Positions 9,832-63,265 of a DNA stretch of 64,000 bases are shown here, in pieces. Within the stretch, counting starts at the first letter, position 1. Each line of letters opens with the position of its first letter. Source of the stretch: Rikenellaceae bacterium DTU049. Lineage in GTDB: Bacteria; Bacteroidota; Bacteroidia; Bacteroidales; DTU049. The translations under genes were made by a program, and so were the position numbers. The notes under the pieces are model-generated. The model was not told the origin of the DNA and did not search any database. It saw only the letters and a list, made by a program, of their open reading frames with translations. The stretch is from assembly GCA_001513285.1 (NCBI GenBank), contig LFTI01000101.1:1309-65308 (forward strand), read 5' to 3'.

Positions 9832-9957
9832 TATTTTCACAATGTAGAAATCATAATAAACTTATTGAAATATGCGTTTAGATAATAAAGTCCTTTTTGA
9901 TTTTTTGTACTAAAAAATGCCTTTACAATAATTCGTAAGTTATGGCAATACCGCATT

Positions 9958-10245
9958 GGGAAATGATTTGCAATAAAACAAGCAAGCCGTGTTGGATATA
10001 AGGGTTTACACTGTTTGAGCAAGCTAAAGCTTGCGAGTTTGTAAACCCACAGAGGTGATTGCGTAGTTTTATCAAAACATTTCCACAGCGGAGACTTTTC
10101 TTTTGTTACTTTTCTTTGTGTGGCTGACAAAGAAAAGTAATTTAAATAAAAATTTATTTAAAATCAATTATGCTCATAAGAAAAATAGCTATTATCGAGG
10201 ATGAACCAGTAATAATTTAGTTATTAATTAAACGCCTAATTCAAT
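9958..10245 (+). repeat. intergenic repeat family A, copy 3 (longest)
   Basis: Same module order as copy 2 with an expanded 'gggtttaca...tgtaaaccc' hairpin. Ends 'taataatttagttattaattaaacgcctaattcaat', like copy 1. Confidence 0.85.
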
Positions 10246-10430
10246 AAACTTACTAAGAAAAATATTAACAAAGCCAATTTAATCTATATTATTTAAGTTT
10301 TTAATTATAATATTGCTATTTTAGATAAATTAAATATGGTTTTATAACGTTTTATATGGACAAGGATTAAAATATTTTTTTTATTTAAAAATTTTTTATA
10401 ATTTAGCTATGTAAAACCGTAAAAAATTAA

Positions 10431-12107
10431 ATGGATATGAAAAATTCAAAATTTACATCAATAAATACTCAGAAGGTAGCTCTGAGTCACTATGTGAGTA
10501 ATATTACATTTATTACAATACTTTTAGCATTAATATTATTTAATGGGGTCAATAATAAATCCCATGCCCAGGCACCAGCTATTGAATGGCAAAAATGCCT
10601 CGGCGGAACATCTGAAGATATTGCATACTCCATCCAGCAGACAAGTGATGGGGGATTTATTGTGGCTGGTGAAACATTGTCCAATGATGGCGATGTGTCG
10701 GGAAATCATGGAGGTAGAGACGCTTGGGTAGTGAAACTTAACAGTTCAGGGGATATTATATGGAAAAAATGCCTCGGCGGAACTGATCATGATTTTGCAT
10801 ACTCCATCCAGCAAACAAGTGATGGGGGATTTATTGTGGCTGGTTTAACAGGGTCCAATGATGGCGATGTGTCGGGAAATCATGGAGGTAGTGATGCTTG
10901 GGTAGTTAAACTTAACAGTTCAGGGGAAATTGAATGGCAAAAATGCCTCGGCGGTACAAATTATGATTTTGCATACTCCATCCAGCAGACAAGTGATGGG
11001 GGATTTATTGTGGCTAGTATTACAGGGTCCAATGATGGTGATGTGTCGGGGAATCATGGAGGTAGTGACTATTGGGTAGTGAAACTTAACAGTTCAGGGG
11101 GTATTGAATGGCAAAAATGCCTCGGCGGTACAAATAGTGATGGCGGAATATTTAATGATTATATATACTCCATTCAGCAGACAAGTGATGGAGGATTTAT
11201 TATGGCTTGTGAAACAATGTCCAATGACGGCGATGTATCGGGGAATCATGGATCTTATGACGCTTGGGTAGTGAAACTTAATAGTTTAGGGGATATTGAA
11301 TGGCAAAAATGCCTAGGCGGTACAAATAGGGATATTGCAAACTCCATCCAGCAAACAAGTGATGGGGGATTTATTGTGGCTGGCTCTACATCTTCCAATG
11401 ACGGCGATGTGTCGGGTAATCATGGATATGGTGACGCATGGGTAGTGAAACTTAATAGTTCAGGGGATATTGAATGGCAAAAATGCCTCGGTGGAACAAA
11501 TTCGGATTGGGCATACTCCATCCAGCAGACAAATGATAGTGGATTTATTGTGGCTGGTTACACACATTCCAATAACGGCGATGTATCAGGGAATCATGGA
11601 TATTATGACTATTGGGTAGTGAAACTTAACAGTTCAGGGGATATTGAATGGCAAAAATGTATTGGCGGTACAAATTATGAGTTTGCAAACTCCATTCAGC
11701 AGACAAGTGATGGTGGATTTATTGTGGCTGGTGAAACATTGTCCAATAACGGTGATGTGTCGGGAAATCATGGATATTCTGACGCTTGGGTAGTGAAATT
11801 AACAAATGAGCCGGATAGAATAAATGAAATAGAAAATTACAATTTACTCTCAATATACCCCAATCCATTCACAGAATATGCAATAATAACTTTTGATAAT
11901 CCTAAAAATGAAAAATACAAATTGCTTATTATAGATGTTACAGGAAAGGTAGTAATGGAAATTAATGAAATTTATGGAAATACAGTGGAAATTGATGGAA
12001 GTAATTTGTCTGCTGGGGTTTATGTGTTTGAACTGACCTGCGGTCAATGCGCTTTGGCAGGCGAAGAAGGGGAGAAGTTGTTCAGGGGGAGGTTTGTGGT
12101 AGAGTAA
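10431..12107 (+). CDS. secreted repeat (probable 7-bladed propeller) protein with T9SS type-A C-terminal sorting domain
   Basis: Signal peptide, then seven about 58-aa repeats 'WQKCLGGT..D.AYSIQQTSDGGFIVAG.T.SNDGDVSGNHG..DAWVVKLNSSGDIE'. A CTD follows ('LSIYPNPFTEYAIITF...SAGVYVFEL'). Confidence 0.85.
   Translation: MDMKNSKFTSINTQKVALSHYVSNITFITILLALILFNGVNNKSHAQAPAIEWQKCLGGTSEDIAYSIQQTSDGGFIVAGETLSNDGDVSGNHGGRDAWVVKLNSSGDIIWKKCLGGTDHDFAYSIQQTSDGGFIVAGLTGSNDGDVSGNHGGSDAWVVKLNSSGEIEWQKCLGGTNYDFAYSIQQTSDGGFIVASITGSNDGDVSGNHGGSDYWVVKLNSSGGIEWQKCLGGTNSDGGIFNDYIYSIQQTSDGGFIMACETMSNDGDVSGNHGSYDAWVVKLNSLGDIEWQKCLGGTNRDIANSIQQTSDGGFIVAGSTSSNDGDVSGNHGYGDAWVVKLNSSGDIEWQKCLGGTNSDWAYSIQQTNDSGFIVAGYTHSNNGDVSGNHGYYDYWVVKLNSSGDIEWQKCIGGTNYEFANSIQQTSDGGFIVAGETLSNNGDVSGNHGYSDAWVVKLTNEPDRINEIENYNLLSIYPNPFTEYAIITFDNPKNEKYKLLIIDVTGKVVMEINEIYGNTVEIDGSNLSAGVYVFELTCGQCALAGEEGEKLFRGRFVVE
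10587..11822 (+). repeat. coding tandem repeat, 7 units (six of 174 bp, one of 192 bp)
   Basis: Unit starts ('tggcaaaaatgcct') are at 10587, 10761, 10935, 11109, 11301, 11475 and 11649. Nucleotide similarity between units is high. Confidence 0.9.
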
Positions 12108-12122
12108 ATGCTAAAAGAGGGT
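12036..12122 (+). repeat. G/A-rich module (inverted orientation of the C/T-rich intergenic repeat family) overlapping the 3' end of CDS 10431..12107
   Basis: 'gcgaagaaggggagaagttgttcagggggagg' resembles the reverse complement of 12540-12560 and 38838-38858. It is locally GC-rich in an AT-rich genome. Confidence 0.5.
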
Positions 12123-12261
12123 AATTTTATAATAATGAATTTTATTTATTATTGCACAGTTAAATATTAACCACAAATTTAACAAAGAATGCACAAAGAA
12201 CACAGAGAATGATAGAAATTAATTGTCTGAAGTGGGATTTGGGAGATTAAAGGATTTTGGG

Positions 12262-12330
12262 ATTTACCCCGTGAGATAACTAGTATTCAACTTTTAATGT
12301 ATCTTTTACTCTATATCTCATGGGGTAAAT
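12262..12330. repeat. 17-bp inverted repeat (hairpin) inside the complex intergenic region
   Basis: 'atttaccccgtgagata' (12262-12278) pairs with 'tatctcatggggtaaat' (12314-12330). 16 of 17 positions are complementary and the mismatch is a G:U position. Confidence 0.7.
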
Positions 12331-12496
12331 TTATTATTTGTGCTCATTTGTATGCATTTGTGGACAATAAATAACAACCAGCAATGTCTATAATTTCATC
12401 CACAGATTTACACAAATTAACACTGATGATTTAGCTTTTTTAGTGCATTTGTTAATTAATTTACAGCTATTATCTTACTATACTATATAAACTATT

Positions 12497-12682
12497 CAAC
12501 TCCATCACTTATCACCTATCACTAATCACTAATCACCTCTTCTCCCTCTCTTCTCGTCACCACGTCTCGCAGTCTAATCGTCTCAACTTATCAACTTTAA
12601 ATTATAATTTGTGTGCATTTGTGGATTAATAACAACAATTGTATAGTTAAATATAAACCTAAATAATTTAACCAAAATAAAC
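12497..12682 (+). repeat. C/T-rich module plus 'tgcatttgtgga' core (intergenic repeat family B/C)
   Basis: 'cttatcacct...cctcttctccctctcttctcg...gtctcgcagtct' followed by 'tgtgtgcatttgtggattaataacaacaattgtata...aaataatttaacc'. Related copies lie at 24371-24670 and 57176-57293. Confidence 0.75.
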
Positions 12683-12721
12683 GTTATAGAACTTTAAATA
12701 TAAATAATTTTAAGAAAAAAT

Positions 12722-12859
12722 AAAAAAATTTTTTTATTTAAAAAGTATTTATTAATTTTGCAAAGTCAAAAACCCTAAAAACAAAAAGATATGAAAAAAT
12801 TAGCAATTTTAGTTTTTGTAGCAATGATTGCTGTATCATTCAGCAGTTGCCAAAAAGAA
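12722..12859 (+). repeat. promoter/5'UTR/lipoprotein-signal module, copy 1 of 4
   Basis: Near-identical to 23138..23273 (about 7 substitutions by manual alignment). Contains the -7 box taattttg and encodes MKKLAILVFVAMIAVSFSSCQKE. Confidence 0.85.
12753..12760 (+). promoter_or_regulatory. Bacteroidota-type -7 promoter box (TAnnTTTG)
   Basis: 'taattttg' lies about 30 nt upstream of the ATG at 12791. Confidence 0.45.
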
Positions 12860-13229
12860 GATACCCAAACAGCTATTATAAAATGTTAAAGAAATTGGAT
12901 TTAAGGGCGTTTTACAAAGTTGCCTTTACAGAATTGAAGGAAATTGTGTTTATGGCGTTTGTTGTACCCCTGGAGCTTTTGAACAATGTCCTTGCTGTTT
13001 TCCTTGTACTCCTATTATTATTGAAGGATCATATATTACTTTAGATTGTGCAAATATATTAGAAAAATTTGGTTTTACTGTGGATGAAATATCGATATGG
13101 CAAAATGATAAAAATGCTTTAGAATGCTCTGATACCTTCATTTTAAATCATTATAATTTTTATTTACTTTTATATGAACAAGGGCTATCAAAACATCCAG
13201 ATGAAATGTTAAAAAATATGAAAAAATAA
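12791..13229 (+). pseudogene. Cys-rich lipoprotein gene disrupted by a 1-nt frameshift
   Basis: A signal peptide plus lipobox ORF (ATG 12791) stops at 12887. A 115-codon ORF with no start codon runs 12882..13229 in the adjacent frame and encodes 'CLYRIEGNCVYGVCCTPGAFEQCPCCFPCTP...'. Removing one A from the aaaa run at about 12880-12883 fuses them. Confidence 0.5.
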
Positions 13230-13236
13230 AATAATT

Positions 13237-14388
13237 ATGAAAAAATATTATATTTTATTGATTAGTATGACATTGTGCCTTTGCTATTCCTGCCAAAATA
13301 ATAAAGACATAGCAAAAATAAATTTCACAATTGATAGCTGCACTATCAGTCATCCAGATATTAAGCAAATCACTAGTAAAATTAATATCGCAATGATAGA
13401 TATTAAAAAGTGGAATGATACTACTTTTTTATTTTTGATACCAAGCAATATGAATAGCACTATATCACTATACACCTACTACTGGGATAATGGTTTTAAT
13501 TTACTAAGCAAATATGAGCTCTCTGACAGCATAAGTAATTTTTTTCTCAAAAATCAATACAATAGCATTACATTTATAAATAAAGATTCATTAATTGCTG
13601 GCGGTAATAATAACTTTGCAATTATTGATTTGAAAAAAAATGAAATCTCACCATCCTATCGACCAAACGAAAATGAATATCTACAAGCGACACAGAATCC
13701 ACTACAATGGAATAGTAAACATAAATTATTATTATCAGAATATCTGAATTACTCTAATCCAACATCAGAGCTTGGCATTGTGCAGACTGAAATAATCGCT
13801 TGCATAGATTTCTATAATAATAAACTCTATAAAATCCCAATAAAAATGATTAATGAAGAGCAAATAAAGCTTGATCCTAATTATGTATTTCATTTTTCTA
13901 CTTTTGATGATAAAATTATTGGTAAACACAGCATAAAAAATGAGTTTTTAGTTTATAATTTTAATGATAATTCAGTAAAAACTATAGAAAATGATGCATT
14001 AGCAAATTTCAATAAAAAATTCACAAATAAAGAGAAGGAACGATTAGAAAAATTACAAAAACAGCTCGGACTATATGATTTTCGTTTGAATGAATTTGCA
14101 AATAATTATATACAAAAAGCTATCGTGTGCGATCAAACTAATGGTAATATTATCATAGCTTACTTAGATCCAGTGCCTCAGGATGGTAAAGATGATAAAA
14201 AACCTCCAATTTCTTATAGAGCTAAAACATTTTTAATTTTTGATAAAGATTTTAATTTGTTAGGAGAAATAAAAACTGATGTTGATAATTTCACACCATC
14301 AATGTTTTTTAGCATAGACAATAATATTTTCTTGATAGAGATTTGTTTTAATAAATTAAATATTAAAAGAATTTCCTATGAATCCTAA
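13237..14388 (+). CDS. hypothetical lipoprotein
   Basis: 383 aa. Signal peptide with lipobox ('LCLCYSC'). I recognise no family. Confidence 0.6.
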   Translation: MKKYYILLISMTLCLCYSCQNNKDIAKINFTIDSCTISHPDIKQITSKINIAMIDIKKWNDTTFLFLIPSNMNSTISLYTYYWDNGFNLLSKYELSDSISNFFLKNQYNSITFINKDSLIAGGNNNFAIIDLKKNEISPSYRPNENEYLQATQNPLQWNSKHKLLLSEYLNYSNPTSELGIVQTEIIACIDFYNNKLYKIPIKMINEEQIKLDPNYVFHFSTFDDKIIGKHSIKNEFLVYNFNDNSVKTIENDALANFNKKFTNKEKERLEKLQKQLGLYDFRLNEFANNYIQKAIVCDQTNGNIIIAYLDPVPQDGKDDKKPPISYRAKTFLIFDKDFNLLGEIKTDVDNFTPSMFFSIDNNIFLIEICFNKLNIKRISYES

Positions 14389-24228: not shown

Positions 24229-24370
24229 ATTTGAATATTAATTTATAATTTACCTATATTAAATCCTTTAATAAATCCATAATATTTTGGATTTAAATGT
24301 ATTATAATTAGCTACATATTTAAACAAATAGTTGATGAGTTTAAGTGTTTATAAGCTAATTAGAAAAAAC

Positions 24371-24670
24371 TAACCTTTTCCTCACACAGTCTCCTTGTCT
24401 CCTACTCTCCCACTCTCCCCATAACTATTTCTTTGTCATACCCTGGCCTAAAGGTCATGATTAATAACCTTTTTTGTACTTATTTGTGTGAATTTGTGGA
24501 CTAATTTATAATTAATATTTTACTAAACTCCTTATAACTTTTTACTTATCACCTCTTCACCCACTCTCCGAGTCTCGCAGTCTCCCAATCTCCTCATCTC
24601 TTTGCCTCCCTGTCTCCTTGTCACCCCCTCTCCCAGTCTCCCCATCACCCACTCTCTCCTACTCTATCAC
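24371..24670 (+). repeat. about 300-bp strongly C/T-rich composite repeat (two C/T modules flanking a 'tgaatttgtggac' core)
   Basis: 'ccttttcctcacacagtctccttgtctcctactctcccactctcccc' ... 'cttatcacctcttcacccactctccgagtctcgcagtctcccaatctcc...ctctcccagtctccccatcaccc'. It ends exactly at the rfbB stop codon (24671). Confidence 0.8.
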
Positions 24671-25657
24671 CTACATTTTTGCTATATACCAATCAATTGT
24701 TTTAGATAATCCTTCAATAAAATCAGTTTTAGGTTGCCAACCGAGCTCTTTTCTAATCTTTGTACTATCAATAGCATAGCGCAGATCATGTCCTAGTCTA
24801 TCTTTTACAAAAGTTATTAATTTTTCACTATATCCTACTGGTCTATTAAGTTTCTCATCCATAATTTTGCAAATCAATTTCACTAGATCAATATTTCGCC
24901 ATTCATTATTACCACCGATATTATATGATTCGCCAATAACACCTTTTAGCCAAACAAGTTCTAGAGCTTCACAATGATCATCTACATACAACCAATCTCT
25001 AATATTAATACCTTGTCCGTAAACAGGCAATGGTTTTTCATGATAAATATTACTAATTATTACTGGTAAAAGTTTCTCTGGATATTGATTAGGACCATAA
25101 TTATTAGAACAATTTGTAACAATAGTAGGCAAGCCATATGTATGGAAATAAGCTTTAACGAAATGATCGCTTGATGCTTTAGATGCAGAATAAGGGCTGC
25201 GAGGAGAATATGGCGTTTGCTCTGTGAAATATCCTTGCTCTCCTAAAGAACCATATACCTCGTCAGTAGAAATATGTATAAACCGTCTATTATCAAAATC
25301 TCCATCCCAAACAGTTTTAGCTGCATTAAGTAAATTCACAGTTCCTATCACATTTGTATATACAAAATCCATTGGATTTACAATAGATCTATCTACATGA
25401 CTCTCTGCAGCTAAATGAAAAACTGCAACGGGATTATATTTTTTAAAAATTTCAAAAATAGCATCGAAGTCTACAATATCCACTTTGATAAAACTATAAT
25501 TAGGTTCGTTTGCTACCTCTTTTACATTATCTAAATCTCCAGCATAGGTTAATTTATCCAAATTAATAATATGATAATTAGGATATTTTTTTACTAATCT
25601 ACAAACGAGATGAGATCCTATGAATCCTGCACCTCCTGTTACTATAATATTATCCAC
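24671..25657 (-). CDS. rfbB: dTDP-glucose 4,6-dehydratase
   Basis: 328 aa, GTG start. 'VTGGAGFIGSH', 'YSASKASSDH' and 'NCSNNYGPNQYPEKLLP'. Confidence 0.92.
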   Translation of the reverse strand: MDNIIVTGGAGFIGSHLVCRLVKKYPNYHIINLDKLTYAGDLDNVKEVANEPNYSFIKVDIVDFDAIFEIFKKYNPVAVFHLAAESHVDRSIVNPMDFVYTNVIGTVNLLNAAKTVWDGDFDNRRFIHISTDEVYGSLGEQGYFTEQTPYSPRSPYSASKASSDHFVKAYFHTYGLPTIVTNCSNNYGPNQYPEKLLPVIISNIYHEKPLPVYGQGINIRDWLYVDDHCEALELVWLKGVIGESYNIGGNNEWRNIDLVKLICKIMDEKLNRPVGYSEKLITFVKDRLGHDLRYAIDSTKIRKELGWQPKTDFIEGLSKTIDWYIAKM

Positions 25658-33683: not shown

Positions 33684-33723
33684 CAAATCAATATTCTGCT
33701 CATAAACTACAAAATTGTGAAAA

Positions 33724-36600
33724 ATGAAAAAATGTTTTTATTTTCTTATAATATTTATTATTACAAATAATTTTTTAATAGCACAGATAGACTGGAATAA
33801 CAGAGAAGCAAATTTATATGCTAAACATTATTTATCCAAGCTCAGCTGGGATGAAAAGATAGCACAGTTGATATTTCAAGGAATCAGAATAAATTCAAAT
33901 GATACAAAAACATTTAAAAGATTTAAAGATCAATTAGATACATTATGCCCAGGTGGAATAATTTTACTAAAAATGAATTCACAAGATTATGAAAAACTAA
34001 GAAATATTACAGATAAATGTGATAAACCACCTATAATATTCTCAATGGATGGAGAATGGGGATTAGGTATGAGATTTACAAATTTCAAATCGTTACCAAG
34101 ATTTATGACAATAAGTGCTACAGGTAATGATAGTTTATTTTATCATTATGGGAATATCATTGGTAAACATTTCTCATTAGCTTCGATACCTATTAATTTC
34201 ACTCCTATTTTAGATATAAATGATGAGCCACTTAATCCAGTTATTGGCACTAGAGCAATATCAGATGAGCCATTAGAAGTAATGACAAGAGCTGAATTAT
34301 TTATTGATGGACTAAATGAATATAAAGTGTTACCTGTCATTAAACATTTCCCTGGTCATGGTAATACTACTACTGATTCACATTATAATTTGCCATTCCT
34401 AAATATGCCTATAGATGTTTTCGAATCTAAACATCTTTTACCTTTCACATATTTCATTAATAAAGATGTTCCTTTTTTAATGGTCGGACACCTTAGCTAT
34501 CCAGCATATACTCATGATAGCCTGCCAGCCACTGTCAATCCTATAATTACTAAAAATTTATTGCGAGATACATTACATTTTAATGGATTAGTATTTTCTG
34601 ATGCTCTAAATATGAAAGCTTTAGCTCAGCTGCCATATGACTCTATGATAATAAAAGCACTACAATCAGGTATTGATATTCTCCTTTTACCAGATAATCC
34701 ATACAGAGTGGTTTCTATTATTAAAAAAGCTGTTAAAGAAAAAAAAATTGATTCATTAGAAATAGAAAATAAAGTTAAAAAAATTTTAATAGCAAAATAC
34801 TTTATTATTAACGAATTTCCACTAAATAATTATAAACATTATCTAACTGATAAATATGTAAATTTATACAATAATGAAATAGACAGTTTATCTCAAATTA
34901 TATACTCAAAAGCTATAACTTTATTAAAAAATGATAATGCCCTTCCTCTCAAATATGATTATGGCAAAGTAGCTATGCTAAATATTGTAAATAATAAACC
35001 ACCTTATGTAGACTCAATATGGTCTAGATATTTCTATTTCGATAATTATTCGCTCAGAGATACTACATTATTAAAAAATAACTTAAATAATTATGATTTA
35101 TTCATAGTAAATTTATTCGTCGGCTCTATGAATAGCAACAATGGTAGAGATAGCCTAACAATTGACTGGTTAGAAAAATTATCTAATAGACATAAAATAA
35201 TCTTAAATATCATAGGACAACCCTTTATCTTAGCTAAATTTAAAAATCCTGACAATTTCACTGCCATCACAACTACCTACGACATTGATTCAATAGCAAT
35301 CTCAATGTTAGCAGAAAAATTAGTTGGTAATAGCCCTTTCGAGGGTAAACTACCAATAGCAATAAATGAAAATTTCTATAAAGGGCTAGGACTACATACA
35401 AATATTTTATCTAATATTATCAAATTTAATAATCCTCCATTAGGTAATATTACTGCTGTAGATGATATAATGCAGCAAGCTTTACTAGATAGTACCTTCC
35501 CTGGTGCAGTAGTATTGGCTATCAAAGACAAACAAATTATTTATTACAAAACATTTGGCAAAGAAACATACGATACCCAAGCAACAAAAATAAATAGATA
35601 TACAATTTTTGATTTGGCTTCACTCACAAAACCATTAGCTACTACCCTTGCAATTATGAAATTATATGAAGAAGGTAAAATAGATTTGCAAGCTCCGATT
35701 TATAAATATATTCCAGAATTACATAATACAAAAATTGGGAAAATTAAAATAGATCGTATTATGACACATTCTGCTGGCCTTCCACCATTTATCAATTTTT
35801 TTGAAATTTATAATCCTACAAAATATCCAGAATTATACTCTAAAATTCCTAATACGAATTATTATCAAGTAGCAGATAATATATTTGTTAATAAAGCCAT
35901 AAAAGATAGCATTATTAATTACCTAAAGACAAACATTACTCCTAATCCCAATATAGGAGTTGTATATTCCGATATTGGTTTTATATTACTGAAATTTGCT
36001 ATCGAGAATATTACTAAAATGGGATTAGATGAATATATAAATGAAAATTTTTATAAACCATTAAATATTAAAAGATTATGCTATGTACCATTAAATAAAT
36101 ATGATAAAAAAGAAATAGCACCTACAGAATATGACAGCATATATAGAAAACAACTTATATGGGGACATGTGCATGATGGTAATGCAGCATTATTAGGAGG
36201 TATTTCTGGTCATGCTGGCCTCTTTGGTAATGCAGAATCAATAGCAATAATACTACAAATGCTATTAGATAATGGTGAATATGGAGGCGTAAAATTATTG
36301 AAACCAGAAACAATACAAAAATTCACATCTGTATATTTTGATAAAAATAGAAGAGGATTAGGTTTTGATAAACCTGCATTAAATAATAAAGAAAGTCCTG
36401 CATGTGAATTAGCTTCACCATATAGCTATGGACATTATGGATTTACTGGTACAATGTTTTGGGTGGACCCACAATATGATTTAATATACGTATTTTTATC
36501 AAACAGAGTATATCCAACTGCTAAAAATACAAAAATCTCTAAAAATTCTATTAGAACAAAAGTACAACAAGCCATTTACCAAGTAATAATAAATAATTAG
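33724..36600 (+). CDS. fusion protein: GH3 beta-N-acetylhexosaminidase-like N-terminal domain plus serine hydrolase/beta-lactamase-family C-terminal domain
   Basis: 958 aa with a signal peptide. GH3 signature 'KHFPGHGNTTTDSH'. C-terminal half has SxxK 'ASLTKPLAT' and 'HSAGL'. Confidence 0.85.
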   Translation: MKKCFYFLIIFIITNNFLIAQIDWNNREANLYAKHYLSKLSWDEKIAQLIFQGIRINSNDTKTFKRFKDQLDTLCPGGIILLKMNSQDYEKLRNITDKCDKPPIIFSMDGEWGLGMRFTNFKSLPRFMTISATGNDSLFYHYGNIIGKHFSLASIPINFTPILDINDEPLNPVIGTRAISDEPLEVMTRAELFIDGLNEYKVLPVIKHFPGHGNTTTDSHYNLPFLNMPIDVFESKHLLPFTYFINKDVPFLMVGHLSYPAYTHDSLPATVNPIITKNLLRDTLHFNGLVFSDALNMKALAQLPYDSMIIKALQSGIDILLLPDNPYRVVSIIKKAVKEKKIDSLEIENKVKKILIAKYFIINEFPLNNYKHYLTDKYVNLYNNEIDSLSQIIYSKAITLLKNDNALPLKYDYGKVAMLNIVNNKPPYVDSIWSRYFYFDNYSLRDTTLLKNNLNNYDLFIVNLFVGSMNSNNGRDSLTIDWLEKLSNRHKIILNIIGQPFILAKFKNPDNFTAITTTYDIDSIAISMLAEKLVGNSPFEGKLPIAINENFYKGLGLHTNILSNIIKFNNPPLGNITAVDDIMQQALLDSTFPGAVVLAIKDKQIIYYKTFGKETYDTQATKINRYTIFDLASLTKPLATTLAIMKLYEEGKIDLQAPIYKYIPELHNTKIGKIKIDRIMTHSAGLPPFINFFEIYNPTKYPELYSKIPNTNYYQVADNIFVNKAIKDSIINYLKTNITPNPNIGVVYSDIGFILLKFAIENITKMGLDEYINENFYKPLNIKRLCYVPLNKYDKKEIAPTEYDSIYRKQLIWGHVHDGNAALLGGISGHAGLFGNAESIAIILQMLLDNGEYGGVKLLKPETIQKFTSVYFDKNRRGLGFDKPALNNKESPACELASPYSYGHYGFTGTMFWVDPQYDLIYVFLSNRVYPTAKNTKISKNSIRTKVQQAIYQVIINN

Positions 36601-36670
36601 GGCGAAAGATTTAAGCGGAGGGGAAAAGGTAGTTAACATTTTTATGTTATACTTTAAATATTGTAAATAG
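36601..36670 (+). repeat. G/A-rich module (inverted C/T-rich family) followed by a 'ttaacatttttatgttatac' segment
   Basis: The reverse complement of 'gggcgaaagatttaagcggaggggaaaaggtagttaac' resembles 24368-24390 'taaccttttcctc...'. It starts at the base after the stop of 33724..36600. Confidence 0.5.
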
Positions 36671-37059
36671 TCTCAAACTCAGGATATTTATATGATAATT
36701 ACGAGAAAAATATTTGCTCAGCATTATTTTTATGCTTCGATAATAATTAATTAAAATGTTTTTTAAATATTCGTAACTTAGTCTATTTTGTCTTTTTTTA
36801 AAAATCAATTTGTATTTTATTATTGTTTGGCTAAATATTAAAATTATTTATCTACAATATATATTTTTTGGCTAATTGTCAATAACTTAATTTGGTTTTT
36901 CTTAAAAAGTTTTGTATTTTTGAATATAGAAATTAAAAAAACTGAGGAATACGTGAGGAAATTATGAAAACAGAGGAAATATGAAAACACAAGAGAAAAT
37001 TAGCGTAGATTTTGAGATTAAAAATATGAAAAAATATTAACAAACAAAAATAAAATATT

Positions 37060-37764
37060 ATGAAAGAACCAATTGAATTAATTGATAATTTAAAGCATTA
37101 TCCATTAGGTGAAGCAAAATTAGAAAAAATTGACGATAAATTAATTGTTTCTAATCTCACTGATAGTGGAATTGATGGAATCGCAATTAATACAGAAGGT
37201 ATTAATGTATGGGAGTTAACATTTAATGCATTTGAAATAGGTAAAAATAATACCTTTAGCCTATCACATTTTGCTACTGACAAAAATAATAGGTTAAAGA
37301 TAATTGCGCAACAATCAATTTATTATGATGAAAACACAAATAAAATTAATTTTGCATTTAATAGTAATTTATTATCAGATAAAGTATTATTAGTTGGCAA
37401 AAACAAAGGTGAAATTATATTTATTGGAGAATATTTAACTCCGAGAAATGACTTTGTTTGTGTTCCCTGGTGGCCAATTATAGCTGCTGCCGTATATATT
37501 ATAGAAAGGGTTGACTATGAATACATATCAACCACTGATAGTGAAGGAAATACTACAGTCACACGAAAAATTTCGTGGAATCCAAAAGAATCAACTACTT
37601 TTCAAACAGGCAAAGATATCGAATTTGAAGCTGATGAACTTTTACTTTATTCAAAACTATACTATCCAAAAGGTAGTGAAGACAACATTGATAAAATCAA
37701 AGAAATTCAAATAACAGCACGTAATTATAAAAAAATAGAAATTTTAAATGAAAAAGGTTGTTAA
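37060..37764 (+). CDS. hypothetical protein (one central hydrophobic segment)
   Basis: 234 aa, no signal peptide. Hydrophobic 'VCVPWWPIIAAAVYII'. I recognise no family. Confidence 0.5.
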   Translation: MKEPIELIDNLKHYPLGEAKLEKIDDKLIVSNLTDSGIDGIAINTEGINVWELTFNAFEIGKNNTFSLSHFATDKNNRLKIIAQQSIYYDENTNKINFAFNSNLLSDKVLLVGKNKGEIIFIGEYLTPRNDFVCVPWWPIIAAAVYIIERVDYEYISTTDSEGNTTVTRKISWNPKESTTFQTGKDIEFEADELLLYSKLYYPKGSEDNIDKIKEIQITARNYKKIEILNEKGC

Positions 37765-38422
37765 TTATCTTCAATTTTTTTTTATAGTTTCATTTTTTTT
37801 ATTTTCTGCCTGTAAAAGTCCTTCTGACAATAAAATTCTCAAAGCTGGTAGAGAATGGACTTATTCAGCAGTTGATTATGACAAATTAGGTAATGTCAAT
37901 GACAGTTTAACACTGATTTTAAAAGTAGATAGCAGTGGGAAGAAGAATTTTTTTAATCAAACAACAATTATTTGGGATTATAAAAGAAATGGTAAAGTAA
38001 TAGAATCAGAAATTTCAGCTGCTGATGAGGAAAATAACCAAATAAGTATTCATCCGCCAAGAAAATTATTTTTAAGTTTTACAGAAATATTACCTTTTCC
38101 TGCATCAGGTAATCCAGGATATTTAACCTATGAAAGTAGAGGAGAATTGCATGTAATAAAATATAAAGATTACAAAGATGGTATACTTGAAGGTAAAATA
38201 ATTACTCGATATTTACACGCAGTTGATACAACCATCTATAATTTTGCAAATAAAAATTATAGATGTTGGATTTTAGAAGGTGAGAATACTAATTATATAG
38301 AAGAATTAGGACAGTTTAAATGTAAATATTTATTTAATGAAGAATTAGGTTTTGTTAATTTGACATACTACAAACCAGACAGTTCATTCGTTGTAATTGA
38401 ATTGAAATCTATTAATTTTTAG
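37748..38422 (+). CDS. hypothetical lipoprotein
   Basis: 224 aa. Lipobox 'LFSAC'. The start overlaps the upstream gene by 17 nt. Confidence 0.55.
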   Translation: MKKVVNYLQFFFIVSFFLFSACKSPSDNKILKAGREWTYSAVDYDKLGNVNDSLTLILKVDSSGKKNFFNQTTIIWDYKRNGKVIESEISAADEENNQISIHPPRKLFLSFTEILPFPASGNPGYLTYESRGELHVIKYKDYKDGILEGKIITRYLHAVDTTIYNFANKNYRCWILEGENTNYIEELGQFKCKYLFNEELGFVNLTYYKPDSSFVVIELKSINF

Positions 38423-38511
38423 ATTATTGACAACATATAACATGTGGTATATTTTATTGCCGAGTTAGAGGGAATGTGAAGGATTATAACCCGCACTAAA
38501 GTCAACATATC

Positions 38512-38796
38512 TTGACAGGAAAATACTTCGCAATCGGCAACAAAAAACAAGTAAAGCGTTGTCTATATAGTGTCAAGATAGTTGAGAGCAAAATAAATGA
38601 TTTCAAGACGTGGTTGAGTAGATTTCACGGAGTAGCTACGAAGTACTTGCAAAGCTACTTAATGTGGTTTGTGATAGTGAATAAGTACTTAAAAGAATTG
38701 ATAGATCCAGACATTGGGAGACTGCTAAACTTGTCCTCGCACGACAGATGGGCGTGGGACAAGTATAGAGAGATAGTTAGTCAAAGATATTATTAA
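38512..38796 (+). pseudogene. 5'-truncated IS1595-like transposase remnant (C-terminal about 90 aa only)
   Basis: 'FHGVATKYLQSYLMWFVIVNKYL...GRLLNLSSHDRWAWDKY' aligns with the C-terminus of 48822..49829 ('FRGVATKYLTNYIMWFVVRGKYL...GRLLNLAASDRRAWERY'). Confidence 0.75.
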
Positions 38797-38825
38797 CATA
38801 CTGTAAAGTATATCAAAAATTTGTT

Positions 38826-38925
38826 ATTTCACCCCCTCACCCTATATCTCCCCTTCTCCTTTTATTTCTCCTCTCTTCTTTCCATTTAATATCTCTGGTT
38901 TTATTTAATTTTTACATTTTTATAC
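38826..38925 (+). repeat. C/T-rich module plus 'tttttacatttttatac' segment (same-orientation homolog of 49905..49982)
   Basis: 'caccccctcaccctatatctccccttctcctttt...ttatttaatttttacatttttatac' versus 'cccattcccctaccccacttctccttattc...cttattaacattttttacatatttttatac'. Confidence 0.65.
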
Positions 38926-39016
38926 TAATTTTTCAAACAATTGAGTTTATTCTCAAAAAAATATTAAATGTTCGATTTTAGATTAATTTTTGAATTTTCA
39001 TTTTGATTTTTCATTG

Positions 39017-39024
39017 TATTTTTG
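39017..39024 (+). promoter_or_regulatory. Bacteroidota-type -7 promoter box (TAnnTTTG) for guaB
   Basis: 'tatttttg' lies 16 nt upstream of the ATG at 39041, inside the longer TTG-started ORF of the track. Confidence 0.45.
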
Positions 39025-39040
39025 CATAAATTTATTAGTT

Positions 39041-40504
39041 ATGAATGAAAATAAAATATTAGATGAAGGGATAACTTTTGATGATGTTTTGCTAGTGCCT
39101 GCATATAGTGAGGTTTTACCTCGAGAGGTCGATACTAGCACTTATTTGACAAGAGATATAAAGTTAAATATTCCTTTACTGTCAGCTGCAATGGATACTG
39201 TTACCGAAGCTAAAATGGCTATTGCTATGGCTCAGGAGGGTGGCATTGGTGTTATACACAAAAATTTATCTATTGAGGATCAAGCTCTCGAAGTGAAAAA
39301 GGTAAAACGTGCTGAAAACGGCATGATTATAGATCCTATAACTATTTTTGCCAATAATACTGTAGGTGATGCATTGAAAATAATGTCTGAAAATCACATA
39401 GGTGGCATTCCTGTCGTTGATGCTAATCGTAAATTAATTGGTATAGTAACTAATAGAGATTTACGCTTCGAAAACAACTATTCTAAACCTATCTTTGAAG
39501 TTATGACTAAAGACAATTTAATTACTGTTAATGAATTTACTGATTTTAATACTGCTGAGGCAATTTTGCAAAAATATAAAATCGAAAAATTGCCTGTTAT
39601 AGATAAAAATGGAGTTTTAATAGGCTTGATCACTTATAAGGATATTATGAAACTACGCGAGAGACCTAATTCTTGTAAAGATGATTTAGGTAGATTACGT
39701 GTAGCTGCTGCTGTAGGGATAACTACTAATACTTTAGAAAGAGTGGAAGCCTTGTTATCTGTTAATGCTGATGCTATCGTAGTAGATACTGCTCATGGAC
39801 AATCGGCTAAGGTCTTGGAAACTATTAAAAAAATCAAATCTACTTTTAAAAATATTCAATTAATAGCTGGTAATATAGCTACTGCTGATGGCGCACAAGC
39901 ATTAGCAGATGCTGGTGCTGATGGTGTGAAAGTAGGTATTGGACCAGGTTCTATTTGTACTACTAGGGTAATCGCAGGTGTAGGTGTCCCTCAATTATCA
40001 GCTATTATGTTTGTAGCTTCAGTTTTGAAAGATAAAGGAATTCCTATTATTGCTGATGGTGGCATTAGATATACTGGTGATATAGTTAAAGCTTTAGCCG
40101 CAGGTGCCAGCAGTGTGATGATAGGTAGTCTCTTTGCTGGTGTAGATGAGGCACCAGGTGAAACTATTATTTTAGAAGGTCGTAAATATAAAGTTTATAG
40201 AGGTATGGGAAGTATAGAAGCTATGCAGCAAGGCTCCAAAGATAGATACTTTCAAGATATGGAAGAAGATATTAAAAAACTGGTCCCAGAAGGTATCGTT
40301 GGTAGAGTCCCATATAAAGGCAATCTATCAGAAGTTGTCTACCAAATGATTGGTGGACTGAGATCAGGCATGGGCTACTGCGGCGCCAAAACTATTAAAA
40401 ATCTTAGACAAGCTAAATTTATTCATATCTCTAATGCTGGCATTACCGAGTCACACCCTCATGACGTTACTATCATCAGAGAAGCCCCTAATTATTCTAG
40501 GTAA
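39041..40504 (+). CDS. guaB: IMP dehydrogenase
   Basis: '[16 protein letters not shown]', tandem CBS domains and the catalytic loop '[11 protein letters not shown]'. The ATG at 39041 is preferred over the TTG at 38990. Confidence 0.95.
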
Positions 40505-40522
40505 TTAAAAAATTATTATATT

Positions 40523-42511
40523 ATGAAAAAATATTTAAGTATTGCAATTTTATCAGTTTTATTGTCCTTAACATTATTTGGACAAAATGATAAAACATTA
40601 TTAGTGATCGAAAATCAAAATGTTCCCGTTTCAGAATTTTTAGATATTTATACTAAAAATAACAAAAATGTAGACTACTCTAAAGCTAGTATCGATGAAT
40701 ATCTGGATTTGTTTATTAATTACAAACTCAAATTAATGGAAATTCAACGTTTAAGATTAGATACGCAAAAAAATTTCATCAATGAATTTCAAAAATACAG
40801 AGACCAGTTAGCTCAATCTTATTTAATTGATAAAAATACTGTAGATAAACTTTTAAATGAAGCTTATACTAGAATGCAAAATGATGTGAGAGTAAGTCAT
40901 ATTTTGGTTAAACTCTCTCCCTATGCTAATCCTAAAGATACTCTAAAAGCTTATAATAAAGCTTTAGAAATAAGAAAAAAATTACTCAATGGTACTGATT
41001 TTGCTAAATTAGCTATTGAAATGAGTGATGATAATAGTGCTAGAGATCAAAATACACCTGATGGTAGATTGATATCTGGTAATGGCGGTGATTTAGGATA
41101 TTTTAATGTTTTTAACATGTTGTATGAATTTGAAACTGCTGCTTACAATTTAAATGTAGGTGAAATATCTCTCCCAGTAAGAACTCCAGTAGGTTATCAT
41201 ATTATCAAATTGACTGAAAAGCATCCAGCTATATATAGATTTAAAATTGCTCATATTCTATTAATGTATCCTCCTAATGCAACTGCTCAAGATAAAGAAT
41301 CTATTAAAGCTAAATCTGATAGCATTTATAAAGAAATTTTGAATGGTGCAGACTTTGCTGAGTTAGCAAATCTACATAGTGATGATAAAGGTTCTGCTAA
41401 TAAAGGTGGTGAATTGCCTTGGCTCACTCCTTTTAGGTTAGTACCTTCTTTTGTACAACCTATTTACAATCATAAACCTGGTGATTATATTCCTCCTGTA
41501 GAAACTTTCTATGGCTTGCATATTATTAAATTGATAGATAAGCAATCTCCACCTGAATTTGCTGCTGTGAAACAAGAATTATTAACAAAATTATATAAAG
41601 ACCCTCGATATCTATTAGCTCAGAAAAAAATAGCTGATAGCCTAAAACAGGTTTATAAAATTCAATATGATAAAAAATTGCTCGTAAATATTGCTAAATC
41701 TATTAATAAAGATTCTCTTTTAAAACGCTCTTTTAATGAATCTCAAATCCCCAATTTAGACAATATTTTAGTTAAAATCGATGATAATTCTATTTATATT
41801 AAAGATTTCGCTAATTATATCAAGAAAAATCAAAGCTTATTTACCAATACTGATGATATTCAAATATTTGTTAATAAAATGTTTGATAATTTCCTAAATG
41901 ATAAAATATTAGAAATAGAAAAAGAAAATTTAGAAAATAAGAATCCTAAATTTGCTGCACAAATTAATGATTATAAAGAAGGAATTTTAATTTTTAATCT
42001 AATGGATCAAAATATATGGAGTAAAGCTATGAAGGATACTGCTGGCTTAAAAGCATATTATGAAACTATAAAAAATAAATATTTAACTGATGAAAAAGCT
42101 AAAATCGGCATTTTCAAAACTAATGATGCTAAAATTTCTCAAAAAGTTCAAAAAAATTTACAAAAAAATATTAAAAATTCTCAATATAATCCAAACTTAA
42201 TTTTATCTAAAATTAACAAAAAAAATAATGTAGTAAGTTATGATTCTATGGTCATAGAAACTGAAAAATTAGCTGATATTGGTTTAGAAAAAAATGTAAA
42301 TGCAATATTCTCAAAAGGAAATAATAATTCTTACGAAATATATTGGTTACAAGATATCATTGCACCACAACCTAAAAGCTTAGATGAAGTAAGAGGCTTA
42401 GTAATATCTGAATATCAGACGTATTTAGAAAAACAATGGATAAATGAACTGAGAAATAGATACCATTGGCAAGTGAATGAGGAAGTTCTAAAATCTTTAT
42501 ATAAAAATTAA
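40523..42511 (+). CDS. periplasmic peptidylprolyl isomerase (parvulin/PpiC domains, SurA/PpiD-like)
   Basis: 662 aa with a signal peptide and two parvulin domains ('VSHILV...GGDLGYF', 'IAHILL...GGELPW'). Confidence 0.8.
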   Translation: MKKYLSIAILSVLLSLTLFGQNDKTLLVIENQNVPVSEFLDIYTKNNKNVDYSKASIDEYLDLFINYKLKLMEIQRLRLDTQKNFINEFQKYRDQLAQSYLIDKNTVDKLLNEAYTRMQNDVRVSHILVKLSPYANPKDTLKAYNKALEIRKKLLNGTDFAKLAIEMSDDNSARDQNTPDGRLISGNGGDLGYFNVFNMLYEFETAAYNLNVGEISLPVRTPVGYHIIKLTEKHPAIYRFKIAHILLMYPPNATAQDKESIKAKSDSIYKEILNGADFAELANLHSDDKGSANKGGELPWLTPFRLVPSFVQPIYNHKPGDYIPPVETFYGLHIIKLIDKQSPPEFAAVKQELLTKLYKDPRYLLAQKKIADSLKQVYKIQYDKKLLVNIAKSINKDSLLKRSFNESQIPNLDNILVKIDDNSIYIKDFANYIKKNQSLFTNTDDIQIFVNKMFDNFLNDKILEIEKENLENKNPKFAAQINDYKEGILIFNLMDQNIWSKAMKDTAGLKAYYETIKNKYLTDEKAKIGIFKTNDAKISQKVQKNLQKNIKNSQYNPNLILSKINKKNNVVSYDSMVIETEKLADIGLEKNVNAIFSKGNNNSYEIYWLQDIIAPQPKSLDEVRGLVISEYQTYLEKQWINELRNRYHWQVNEEVLKSLYKN

Positions 42512-48746: not shown

Positions 48747-48821
48747 AAATATAAATAAGAGAATATTAGGGTTTATAAAATTTTTTCAAAATTTTATAAA
48801 TAAGGAATTGAAATAAAATAT

Positions 48822-49829
48822 TTAAATGTTATAGATTAAATATGTTTTTGACATCAAAGCACTGTACCGCTCCCATGCCCGCCTATCCGACGCCGCCAAA
48901 TTCAGCAACCTCCCTGTATCTTCTATAATCTTCTCCGCCAAATACTTACCTCTCACTACAAACCACATTATGTAGTTTGTCAAATACTTTGTCGCCACTC
49001 CTCGAAACTTATAATATATCCAGCCAACAAAATCTGTTATCTTCTTATGAATAGTTGATACACTGTATATACCATCTTTCTTCTTTTTCTTAGAAGATAT
49101 CTCTTTGTGTTTGATGTGCTCAGCATTAACTGTTTTGAAAGCTTTTTTATCGCTGCCGCATACCACTGAATTCTCAGATATCCTATATTTTAGAAAATCT
49201 GATATGTGTTCAGCCTGAACTCGTTTATCTTCTAATTTTTTGAACAAAATATTTCCACTTCTATCTGTGGCAGCTATTATTGCTACTTTCTCTGGCTTCT
49301 TTTTCGTTAGCTTTTTTAATTCTTTCTTGTCTCGTCTCTTTTTACCTTTTTCAGAATAATTCATTAGAAGCTCCTCTAATTCTACTATTCCAAAGAAATT
49401 AATATTGTCTTCAAAAGATTGCAAAGCACAGAGAATTCTATGTCGCCAAAAGAAACTCGTTGTGAGGCTAATATTCACAATTCTTGCACATTCTCTCAAG
49501 CTCATTCCTGCACTCATACATTTGATATATTCGAGCATTTTGCCCTTTTCATGAACCCCATACATAAAAGTGCCAGTGGTAACTCTAAATTGTCTTCCAC
49601 AGTTTTTGCAACGGTAATTTTGAACTCCACTTTGCAAACCGTTTTTAATTACATGGCTGCTATTGCAATCTGGACAAAGTACACCAGTAGACATAGCTTT
49701 GATCTCTTGATAATCTACGACATCTTTGCCTTCTTCGATCATTTGATCATAAAGATTGTCGTAAAACTCGCGTGTACCTTCCTTAGTAAGGGTAAATATT
49801 TTAGTAGGGTTTTCAAATATTTTATCCAT
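48822..49829 (-). CDS. IS1595-like transposase
   Basis: Zn-ribbon 'CPDCNSSH...YRCKNCGRQF', HTH 'MSLRECARIVNISLTTSFFWRHRI' and a DDE-type core ('GIVELEEL', 'VVCGSDKKAF', 'ITDFVGW'). The ATG at 49829 is preferred because a -7 box lies between it and the track start at 49871. Confidence 0.8.
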   Translation of the reverse strand: MDKIFENPTKIFTLTKEGTREFYDNLYDQMIEEGKDVVDYQEIKAMSTGVLCPDCNSSHVIKNGLQSGVQNYRCKNCGRQFRVTTGTFMYGVHEKGKMLEYIKCMSAGMSLRECARIVNISLTTSFFWRHRILCALQSFEDNINFFGIVELEELLMNYSEKGKKRRDKKELKKLTKKKPEKVAIIAATDRSGNILFKKLEDKRVQAEHISDFLKYRISENSVVCGSDKKAFKTVNAEHIKHKEISSKKKKKDGIYSVSTIHKKITDFVGWIYYKFRGVATKYLTNYIMWFVVRGKYLAEKIIEDTGRLLNLAASDRRAWERYSALMSKTYLIYNI

Positions 49830-49845
49830 AAAAATAATTTTTTTG

Positions 49846-49853
49846 CAAATATA
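49846..49853 (-). promoter_or_regulatory. Bacteroidota-type -7 promoter box (TAnnTTTG) for the transposase
   Basis: The minus strand reads 'tatatttg' 16 nt upstream of the ATG at 49829. Confidence 0.4.
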
Positions 49854-50028
49854 TGAATTTTTATTATACAAAAAACTTGATTTTTAATAACATGAAAATA
49901 TTACCATACCCATTCCCCTACCCCACTTCTCCTTATTCTTATCCCCAACCTCTTATTAACATTTTTTACATATTTTTATACTTTTTGATTTTTTATTTAC
50001 TTTTGCATTAACAATTAAATTTACAATT

Positions 50029-63184: not shown

Positions 63185-63265
63185 TAAAAATTTTTTGTAA
63201 AGATTTTACAATAGAATATCCTTTATAAATTTACATTAGAAAATGATAAAAATATTAAATTACAT

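Follow-up and report, generated by a model that had tools for sequence, protein, structure and literature searches.

How did two genes of no annotated family come to lie, with the tail end of a transposase gene, between two housekeeping genes? The question is raised by a 2.3-kb islet (positions 36601-38925) within a stretch of 64,000 nt from contig LFTI01000101.1 of Rikenellaceae bacterium DTU049 (assembly GCA_001513285.1). This whole stretch is called the window herein. Its GC content is 29%, and its nearest relatives are uncultured Bacteroidales metagenome-assembled genomes (MAGs) and metagenome contigs. The two genes, named A and B, were described in a first-pass annotation of the DNA as possible passenger cargo of a decayed insertion sequence (IS), and every islet element listed in that annotation was recovered at the same coordinates in the list of open reading frames (ORFs) and in domain searches. 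The explanation that we consider highly probable is that an old resident IS of the IS1595 family had its interior replaced by a chromosomal segment carrying A and B, which left a cassette without a transposase and with both terminal inverted repeats.

The islet site with and without the A-B pair

Comparators were collected by scanning species-representative genomes for the GH3-fusion protein and metagenome contigs for the transposase, and they are cited by L numbers. In L070, the same housekeeping flanks, i.e., the GH3/beta-lactamase fusion gene on the left and guaB on the right, and the same G-rich and C-rich tracts enclose an intact transposase gene of 330 codons, and neither A nor B is present. 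On the left, window positions 33709-36665 are 98.5% identical to L070 1-2957; on the right, positions 38539-41784 are 95.8% identical to L070 3736-6987. Between these flanks, 778 bp of the IS, comprising the 5' untranslated region and codons 1-245, are swapped for 1,873 bp in the window (36666-38538), comprising a leader, A, B, and the tail of B. An intact IS was also found immediately 3' of the GH3 gene in L012, L013, and L014, with neither A nor B. In L015, whose GH3 gene is 83% identical, there is neither an IS nor the A-B pair, and the downstream genes differ. The intact, cargo-free IS with the same tracts at the same site (L070 and L012-L014) therefore points to a replacement of the interior of a resident IS by the cargo. 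The earlier view of the two genes as passengers of a decayed IS stands as far as their position is concerned, since both lie between the left and the right inverted repeat (IRL and IRR), but it is amended in that the cargo did not arrive with the termini. It had also been considered that relatives lacking any transposase might keep the two genes at this position; the relatives found here have the transposase and lack the two genes.

On the left, the fusion gene (33724-36600; forward strand, as are all features below unless stated otherwise) is recognized by PF00933 (E 1.7e-59) and PF00144 (E 1.5e-41). Its stop codon TAG (36598-36600) directly adjoins a G/A-rich tract (36601-36633), which borders the IS core on the left and is orthologous to the tract beside the intact IS in L070, L011, and L013. 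IRL (36634-36658) and the 7 nt after it are the last IS-derived bases before the cassette (36634-36665), and the homology to L070 stops at 36665. The AT-rich leader of the cassette follows (36666-37059; GC 18-20%).

On the right, the native 3' tail of B and the right junction between cassette and IS (38423-38538) are followed by the transposase remnant (38539-38796), which corresponds to codons ~246-330 of 330. The mechanical ORF at this place is somewhat longer (38512-38796, 94 codons) and matches the IS1595 transposase model NF033547 (E 3.8e-9). The true homology covers residues 244-329 of the 330-aa L070 transposase at 94% identity, so only the C-terminal quarter is left in the window, and the first-pass annotation of a C-terminal IS1595-like transposase fragment proved correct. 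The intact L070 transposase (330 aa) itself matches PF12762 (E 1e-10), and no further transposase remnants were detected in the islet by tblastn. IRR (38802-38826) closes the element. Outside it lies a C/T-rich tract (38827-38925) that is orthologous to the tract upstream of guaB in L070, L030, and L044; this tract has 28 C and 2 G in its first 78 nt, and a strong negative GC skew was measured at 38800-38999. The right flank is guaB, encoding IMP dehydrogenase (39041-40504; PF00478, E 5e-164).

The inverted repeat consensus was derived from 80 intact copies of the IS (L016-L095) in many contexts. Their conserved core starts with TAACATTTTTATGTTATAGTTTAAA and ends with AAGTATAACAAAAATTTGTTA. 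The terminal inverted repeats of the islet, TAACATTTTTATGTTATAcTTTAAA and AAGTATAtCAAAAATTTGTTA, are AT-rich 25-mers that lie internal to the G-rich and C-rich modules. The left end (36634-36658) has one mismatch to the 25-nt consensus, and the right end (38806-38826) has one mismatch to the 21-nt consensus; each occurs a single time in the window, with 0 occurrences expected by chance. The longest inverted repeat in the islet pairs 36634-36674 with 38786-38826 (41 nt, 73% complementary), which answers the doubt whether the termini align as inverted repeats at all, and each IS end holds a small palindrome. The G-rich and C-rich modules had been proposed as the element termini. They do mark both ends in opposed orientation, but the true inverted repeats are AT-rich and lie inside them. 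No second IRR upstream of the leader and no second IRL downstream of B was found in the window. A compound (composite) transposon is ruled out by this single IRL and single IRR; the islet may go back to an ancestral composite that was reduced by deletions.

Both junctions recur elsewhere. In L001-L006, where A is 90% identical, the leader is fused to IRL at the identical base, directly after the repeat, and the same leader, A, and B lie 3' of a CTP_transf_like gene with its own G-rich tract. In L030 and L044, an intact IS occupies this CTP_transf_like site, with guaB on the opposite side. The junction between B and the remnant was found again in L011, an independent MAG that has a run of N within the critical region. 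The homology of the B tail to the IS-free locus L007 is detectable by BLAST up to 38468 and tentative to about 38550. Since the BLAST-level homology ends at 38468, an AACAAAA(A/G)ACA microhomology between the native tail of B and the transposase gene is proposed tentatively for the right junction.

The proposed course of events is as follows. An IS1595-family IS, with a core of about 1.1 kb and a 330-aa zinc-ribbon DDE transposase, would have resided for a long time between the GH3 fusion gene and guaB in an uncultured Bacteroidales clade. In the lineage of the window, the 778-bp interior, i.e., the 5' untranslated region and the first ~245 codons, would have been exchanged for the 1,873-bp chromosomal segment, consisting of the leader and the translationally coupled two-gene unit A-B. 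The exchange would have placed the left junction right after IRL and joined the native 3' tail of B to transposase codon ~246. The product would be a cassette without a transposase that kept both terminal inverted repeats, and structurally it would be a decayed transporter IS or a mobile insertion cassette. We infer that the cassette passed from one IS-occupied site to another; recombination of IS copies with each other or mobilisation in trans by intact copies would account for this.

The A-B gene pair and its products

Gene A (37060-37764) encodes a beta-rich protein of 234 aa, and gene B (37748-38422) encodes a 224-aa lipoprotein. The two genes overlap by 17 nt. The pair was found outside any IS in two settings. 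In L007-L009, where B is 71% identical, tsaD and a DHO dehydrogenase gene flank the pair; A is a frameshifted remnant, B is intact, and the locus is IS-free. In L098, a homologue of A (30% identity) is followed by a homologue of B (28% over 233 aa, E 1.5e-13; profile E 9.5e-21), and these two genes overlap by the same 17 nt, with no IS nearby. Because these IS-free loci (L007 and L098) hold the pair, L098 with the same overlap, A-B is a genuine coupled two-gene unit that is older than its capture. This co-occurrence was judged from few loci, a search of indexed proteins with the A-family alignment having listed at least 8 proteins. Homologues of A were also found without B (L096 and L100), and one homologue of B was found without A (L010). 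The distant A homologue of L096 (1-8738) is placed in a region like a conjugative element, with genes for a TraG coupling protein, HTH_17, WYL, and a resolvase, and with no B-like partner. A comparison of L007 (2610-4513) with L008 shows an insertion in one of the two strains only: genes for a MvaI/BcnI-type restriction enzyme and a methyltransferase-like protein separate B from the DHO dehydrogenase gene.

An Rfam scan of positions 36000-39500, covering the leader, gave no meaningful match. The leader has a short imperfect duplication at 36970-37004 (gaggaaattatgaaaaca / gaggaaatatgaaaaca); it is the sole break in homology to the leader of the L001 type, which is without the duplication.

Neither protein could be assigned to a family in the first-pass annotation. 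In searches of A and B against Pfam, NCBIfam, and PDB sequences, no family was obtained; PADLOC gave nothing at E <= 0.1, and PHROGs gave just two matches at E ~0.06, so the search results do not place the proteins among phage or defence systems. An exhaustive profile search with A, however, returned 117 relatives (counted as clusters; 49 at E <= 1e-10), mostly of 225-255 aa, and a fold could be proposed for B from its model. A is thus a member of an unannotated family of ~235-aa proteins. Members of the family share the motif L.VSN.g.SG.DG at the N-terminus, a hydrophobic NWW... stretch in the centre, and conservation of the C-terminus. The single hydrophobic segment reported for A is indeed present at residues 133-151, but its Kyte-Doolittle mean of 1.49 is borderline and below the threshold for a membrane helix. 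No significant match was obtained by a fold search with the model of A. The N-terminal segment of A (about residues 10-55, motif L.VSNiGSSGqDGV) is repeated 4-8 times in giant proteins of 600-3100 aa, including P0051, P0057, P0063, P0073, P0081, and others. P0057 bears a C-terminal sorting domain of the type IX secretion system (T9SS), and the repeat of the giant proteins is covered by no Pfam model.

B carries a signal peptide and the lipobox LFSAC, and the annotation of B as a lipoprotein gene at 37748-38422 that overlaps A by 17 nt was confirmed. Its structure model has a moderate predicted local distance difference test score (pLDDT 70.8). The best matches of the model are 3fzx and 4fvs, with Foldseek E values of 8e-6 to 2e-5 and template modelling (TM) scores of 0.47-0.56, and the TM scores of the matches to 3fzx, 4fvs, LolA, and YmcC span 0.3-0.56. 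From this model, B is predicted to have a fold like that of the YmcC/LolA-like open beta-barrel lipoproteins. BF2203 (PDB 3fzx), BDI_3050 (PDB 4fvs), and the LolA/LolB superfamily are, as is predicted for B, exported or lipidated open beta-barrels of ~210-230 aa. The sequence identity of B to 3fzx and 4fvs is ~12%, and profile searches give no link at the sequence level. Both structures are YmcC-like lipoproteins of Bacteroidales, themselves without known function. A-B may form an envelope-associated module.

Composition-biased tracts and the origin of the islet

The G-rich and C-rich tracts outside the inverted repeats were compared among copies of the IS. Going outward from either end, the frequencies over the first 30-40 nt of 28 dereplicated copies are 0.28-0.38 for C and 0.01-0.05 for G, compared with backgrounds of 0.14 and 0.155, respectively. 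Over the first 78 nt outward of 74 independent ends, the median counts are 17 C and 3 G and the median C/G is 5.0; C/G is at least 3 in 76% of these ends and in 2.3% of 1,111 control windows. A GGGG/CCCC run is found 5-15 nt outside the core in ~70% of ends, and the C-rich, G-poor bias continues past the run. L041, L074, and L085 are intact copies without any G tract. From site to site, the tract sequences themselves mostly show no relation (median extension score 5 over 2,674 pairs). At orthologous occupied sites they align at 45-70% with large indels, compared with 85-100% in the adjoining flanks. Two groups of copies at different sites have 57-67 nt of C-rich tract in common before they diverge. 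The tracts are a real class property of this IS group, defined by composition bias and not by sequence repeats.

The reading of the tracts as sequence repeats was rejected on account of weak alignments, a 17-mer without significance, and the lack of conservation among the 80 copies. The local alignment of 38826-38925 with 49905-49982 scores 43, compared with 25.8 +/- 4.0 for mononucleotide shuffles. No significant enrichment was seen for the 17-mer TTTTTACATTTTTATAC, with 2 matches against 0.38 expected, a number reached by 5 of 100 shuffles. A hairpin target, with the G tract as the inverted repeat of its own C tract, was also rejected, as cognate pairs equal non-cognate pairs (p = 0.97), and stacked 8-bp target duplications were rejected as the source of the tracts, no 8-nt periodicity being found. 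A search for unoccupied sites with a G tract followed by a C tract used thresholds that were too permissive, and it returned mostly purine-rich coding stretches.

The window has one intact IS, an IS1595-family element of another subgroup on the reverse strand (48774-49903, the ends being approximate and read by eye; transposase gene 48822-49829 or 49871). Its transposase has 47% amino-acid identity to that of L070. The tract at its 5' side (49904-49982, reverse strand) is G-rich on the coding strand of the IS and has 28 C and 0 G on the forward strand. The module of 38826-38925 had been reported to recur at 49905-49982. The two are alike in composition but not in sequence, and the tract lies on the 5' side of the transposase. 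As this IS is on the reverse strand, the tract at 49905-49982 is therefore the counterpart of the G-rich module at 36601, not of the C-rich module at 38826.

The rut (Rho utilisation) sites of Rho-dependent terminators are defined by composition, as C-rich, G-poor RNA. The tracts resemble them in being composition-defined and in giving C-rich, G-poor RNA in the outward direction over ~30-80 nt. By composition, the tracts have the outward C-rich, G-poor transcript of ~70-80 nt that is characteristic of rut elements, and a spacing of 11-12 nt between C residues shows weak enrichment (z about 2.9). To our knowledge, rut sites are not a standard feature of IS ends. It may be hypothesized that the tracts act as orientation-specific, Rho-utilisation-like insulators or that their composition serves the ends of these IS in another way. 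A wider reading, in which the IS1595 group has a hitherto undescribed end architecture of composition-constrained, sequence-unconstrained tracts that shield neighbouring genes from IS-borne transcription or give another strand-specific signal, and the islet is a young mobile insertion cassette that moves an envelope module between insulated sites, is conceivable, and we regard it as unlikely.

The cargo was not brought in with the tracts, since the same tracts border the intact cargo-free IS in L070. This observation bears on an origin as a single transposable unit of 2.3 kb that takes in the G-rich and C-rich modules, has its termini at 36601 and 38925, and brought both genes. The 57-67 nt of C-rich tract common to two copy groups at otherwise different sites would fit such a unit, as would the GGGG(C)T motif that lies 6-15 nt outside the core in most copies and is like the IS1016-type terminus GGGGCTGTACTAGA (PMC12561309); the lack of relation between most tracts, the lack of greater likeness between cognate left and right tracts, and the intact copies without a G tract do not fit it. 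L042 would again fit such a unit, in that it has additional DNA on both sides of the IS core compared with the unoccupied site in the window. An 8-bp, usually AT-rich target-site duplication is reported for the IS1595 family (PMC12561309); no 8-bp duplication was found outside any G-run or C-run, and direct reading of the sequence at 36601 and 38925, where the first-pass annotation had suggested looking for one, revealed none. Taken together, a single 2.3-kb unit is judged to be decidedly improbable. Nor does the pair seem native to the spacer between the GH3 gene and guaB, with an IS inserted alongside that then decayed and genes that are not cargo. The pair does behave like an ordinary chromosomal operon in L007 and L098, but in L007 it sits between tsaD and the DHO dehydrogenase gene, and at the islet site five independent GH3-bearing relatives lack A-B and have an intact IS or other genes instead. 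The position of IRL upstream of the leader and of IRR downstream of the remnant places the genes inside the element, and L070 already contradicts a native pair, which is left with hardly any probability. A chimera joining reads of different IS copies is given just as little credence. The flank combinations of the IS vary between contigs, and misjoins over the 1.1-kb repeat could produce this; however, both outer flanks of the islet are collinear with L070. The islet is unlikely to be an assembly artefact because its IS-derived stretches are short (32 bp on the left and ~290 bp on the right), too short to mislead an assembler, and because the junctions recur in independent assemblies: the IRL-leader junction in six, and the B-remnant junction again in L011.

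Several points weigh against the replacement of a resident IS interior followed by spread of the cassette. No target-site duplication was found at any candidate boundary of the islet, so there is no direct sign that the unit ever transposed. The cassette is known at only two loci, the GH3/guaB site and the CTP_transf_like site; both bear an IS in other strains, neither has a duplication, and this fits recombination equally well. For recombination, the left homology arm is just ~33 bp. The one intact IS that the window has is of another subgroup, and an intact cognate transposase in this genome is hypothetical. All comparators are metagenome assemblies or MAGs, in which joins over a 1.1-kb repeat can be chimeric, and the N run in L011 belongs here as well. 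As to the function of A, its structure model is poor (pLDDT 53.6). Among the 28 dereplicated copies, cognate flanks anchored at the G/C runs were no better than non-cognate flanks in showing direct repeats, and a search for target duplications at any position was saturated and uninformative. The age of the insertions and a shuffling of flanks are possible reasons for the absence of target duplications.

Other repeats and rearrangements were observed in the course of the comparison. Window positions 63185-63240, flanked by an ORF of 121 aa and a convergent one of 184 aa, are the unoccupied counterpart of the IS insertion in L042 and L055. Relative to this site, L042 has ~19 nt (GGGGGAATTAACAGTAAGAT), the IS, and ~100 nt extra, and the site was discarded as a gauge of the exact inserted unit, being too diverged from L042 and L055. 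The flank combinations of the IS include GH3/guaB (L070), GH3/other (L012, L016, L017, and L020), CTP_transf_like/guaB (L030 and L044), and an L018-type left flank with guaB (L083), which suggests frequent IS-mediated rearrangement or chimeric metagenome joins. C/G-rich tracts at 12.0-12.7 kb and 24.3-24.7 kb were considered as solo IS ends and turned out to be part of a different, composite element like a miniature inverted-repeat transposable element (MITE). Such composite MITE-like intergenic elements are present at window 11980-12700 and 24360-24690, at L002 9500-10160, at L013 256-555, and as five ~310-bp copies in L001. They are made of short "word" repeats (CATTTGTG.., CACAAAG.., TCTCC.., CACTAAT..) with boundaries GGTTCTATAACGTTTGT... 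and ...ACAATAAACGTTATAGAAC, and the C-rich and G-rich tracts within them have no relation to the IS1595 ends. In L001, a direct duplication of 1.49 kb (9593-11078 / 12224-13709; a SIMPL gene and MITE parts, 98.7%) stands astride another IS1595-family copy. It is missing from L004, which is identical in other respects, and repeat recombination or an assembly artefact is its cause. At window positions 10580-11790, a unit of 174 nt (58 codons) is repeated in tandem six to seven times; the copies are 81-97% alike and presumably encode a repeat-domain protein.

The islet among passenger-carrying insertion sequences

The capture of cargo by IS is already known. Passenger-carrying IS, termed transporter IS (tIS), are said to occur in just two families, IS1595 and IS66 (preprint 10.1101/2021.05.26.445724), and tIS and mobile insertion cassettes (MICs), the latter an established category, are defined in PMC3129680. 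The tIS of the IS1595 family go back to Siguier, Gagnevin and Chandler 2009, as cited in PMC3129680 and 10.1101/2021.05.26.445724. Like a tIS, the islet holds passenger genes unrelated to transposition within IS1595-family terminal inverted repeats. Unlike a tIS, which keeps a functional transposase, its passengers have replaced three quarters of the transposase gene, so that it is non-autonomous, and no target duplication is visible. With 86 codons left in place of an intact transposase, the islet was not classified as a tIS.

MICs have passengers bracketed by the inverted repeats of an IS without a functional transposase, as the islet does with its order of IRL, leader, A, B, remnant, and IRR, and a cognate IS could in principle mobilise them in trans. 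An example is MIC231, derived from IS231 (De Palmenaer et al. 2004, as cited in PMC3129680). The islet differs from MIC231 in keeping an 86-codon remnant, in an origin by internal replacement that is traceable, and in its IS family and host phylum. In the layout of its sequence, the islet resembles a MIC or a tIS that has decayed.

The islet element was also compared with the IS1595 family as such. Its transposase type and terminal inverted repeats are those of the family, and the 8-bp target duplication is absent. ISApl4, of the IS1016 subgroup of this family, is 712 bp long and has perfect 14-bp inverted repeats and clear 8-bp AT-rich direct repeats (PMC12561309). Its DDE transposase is of the same family as that of the islet IS, and the GGGGCT... 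found by many copies resembles the ISApl4 terminal repeat GGGGCTGTACTAGA. In contrast to ISApl4, the islet IS has a ~1.1-kb core, an N-terminal zinc ribbon, AT-rich palindromic inverted repeats, long G-rich and C-rich tracts, and no detectable direct repeats.

Current concepts are unchanged by this locus because passenger-carrying and transposase-less IS derivatives are already known, and the finding is ordinary except for one unexplained feature in the flanking DNA. The locus is a clean example of an IS becoming a gene carrier, in which the precursor, the donor-type locus, and the product are all recoverable from related genomes. As a conserved and translationally coupled pair, the two hypothetical proteins deserve characterisation, and one of them comes from a sizeable family without annotation. 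The strand-asymmetric tracts are reproducible and unexplained; if they insulate transcription, this would bear on the tolerance of a high IS load in compact AT-rich Bacteroidales genomes.

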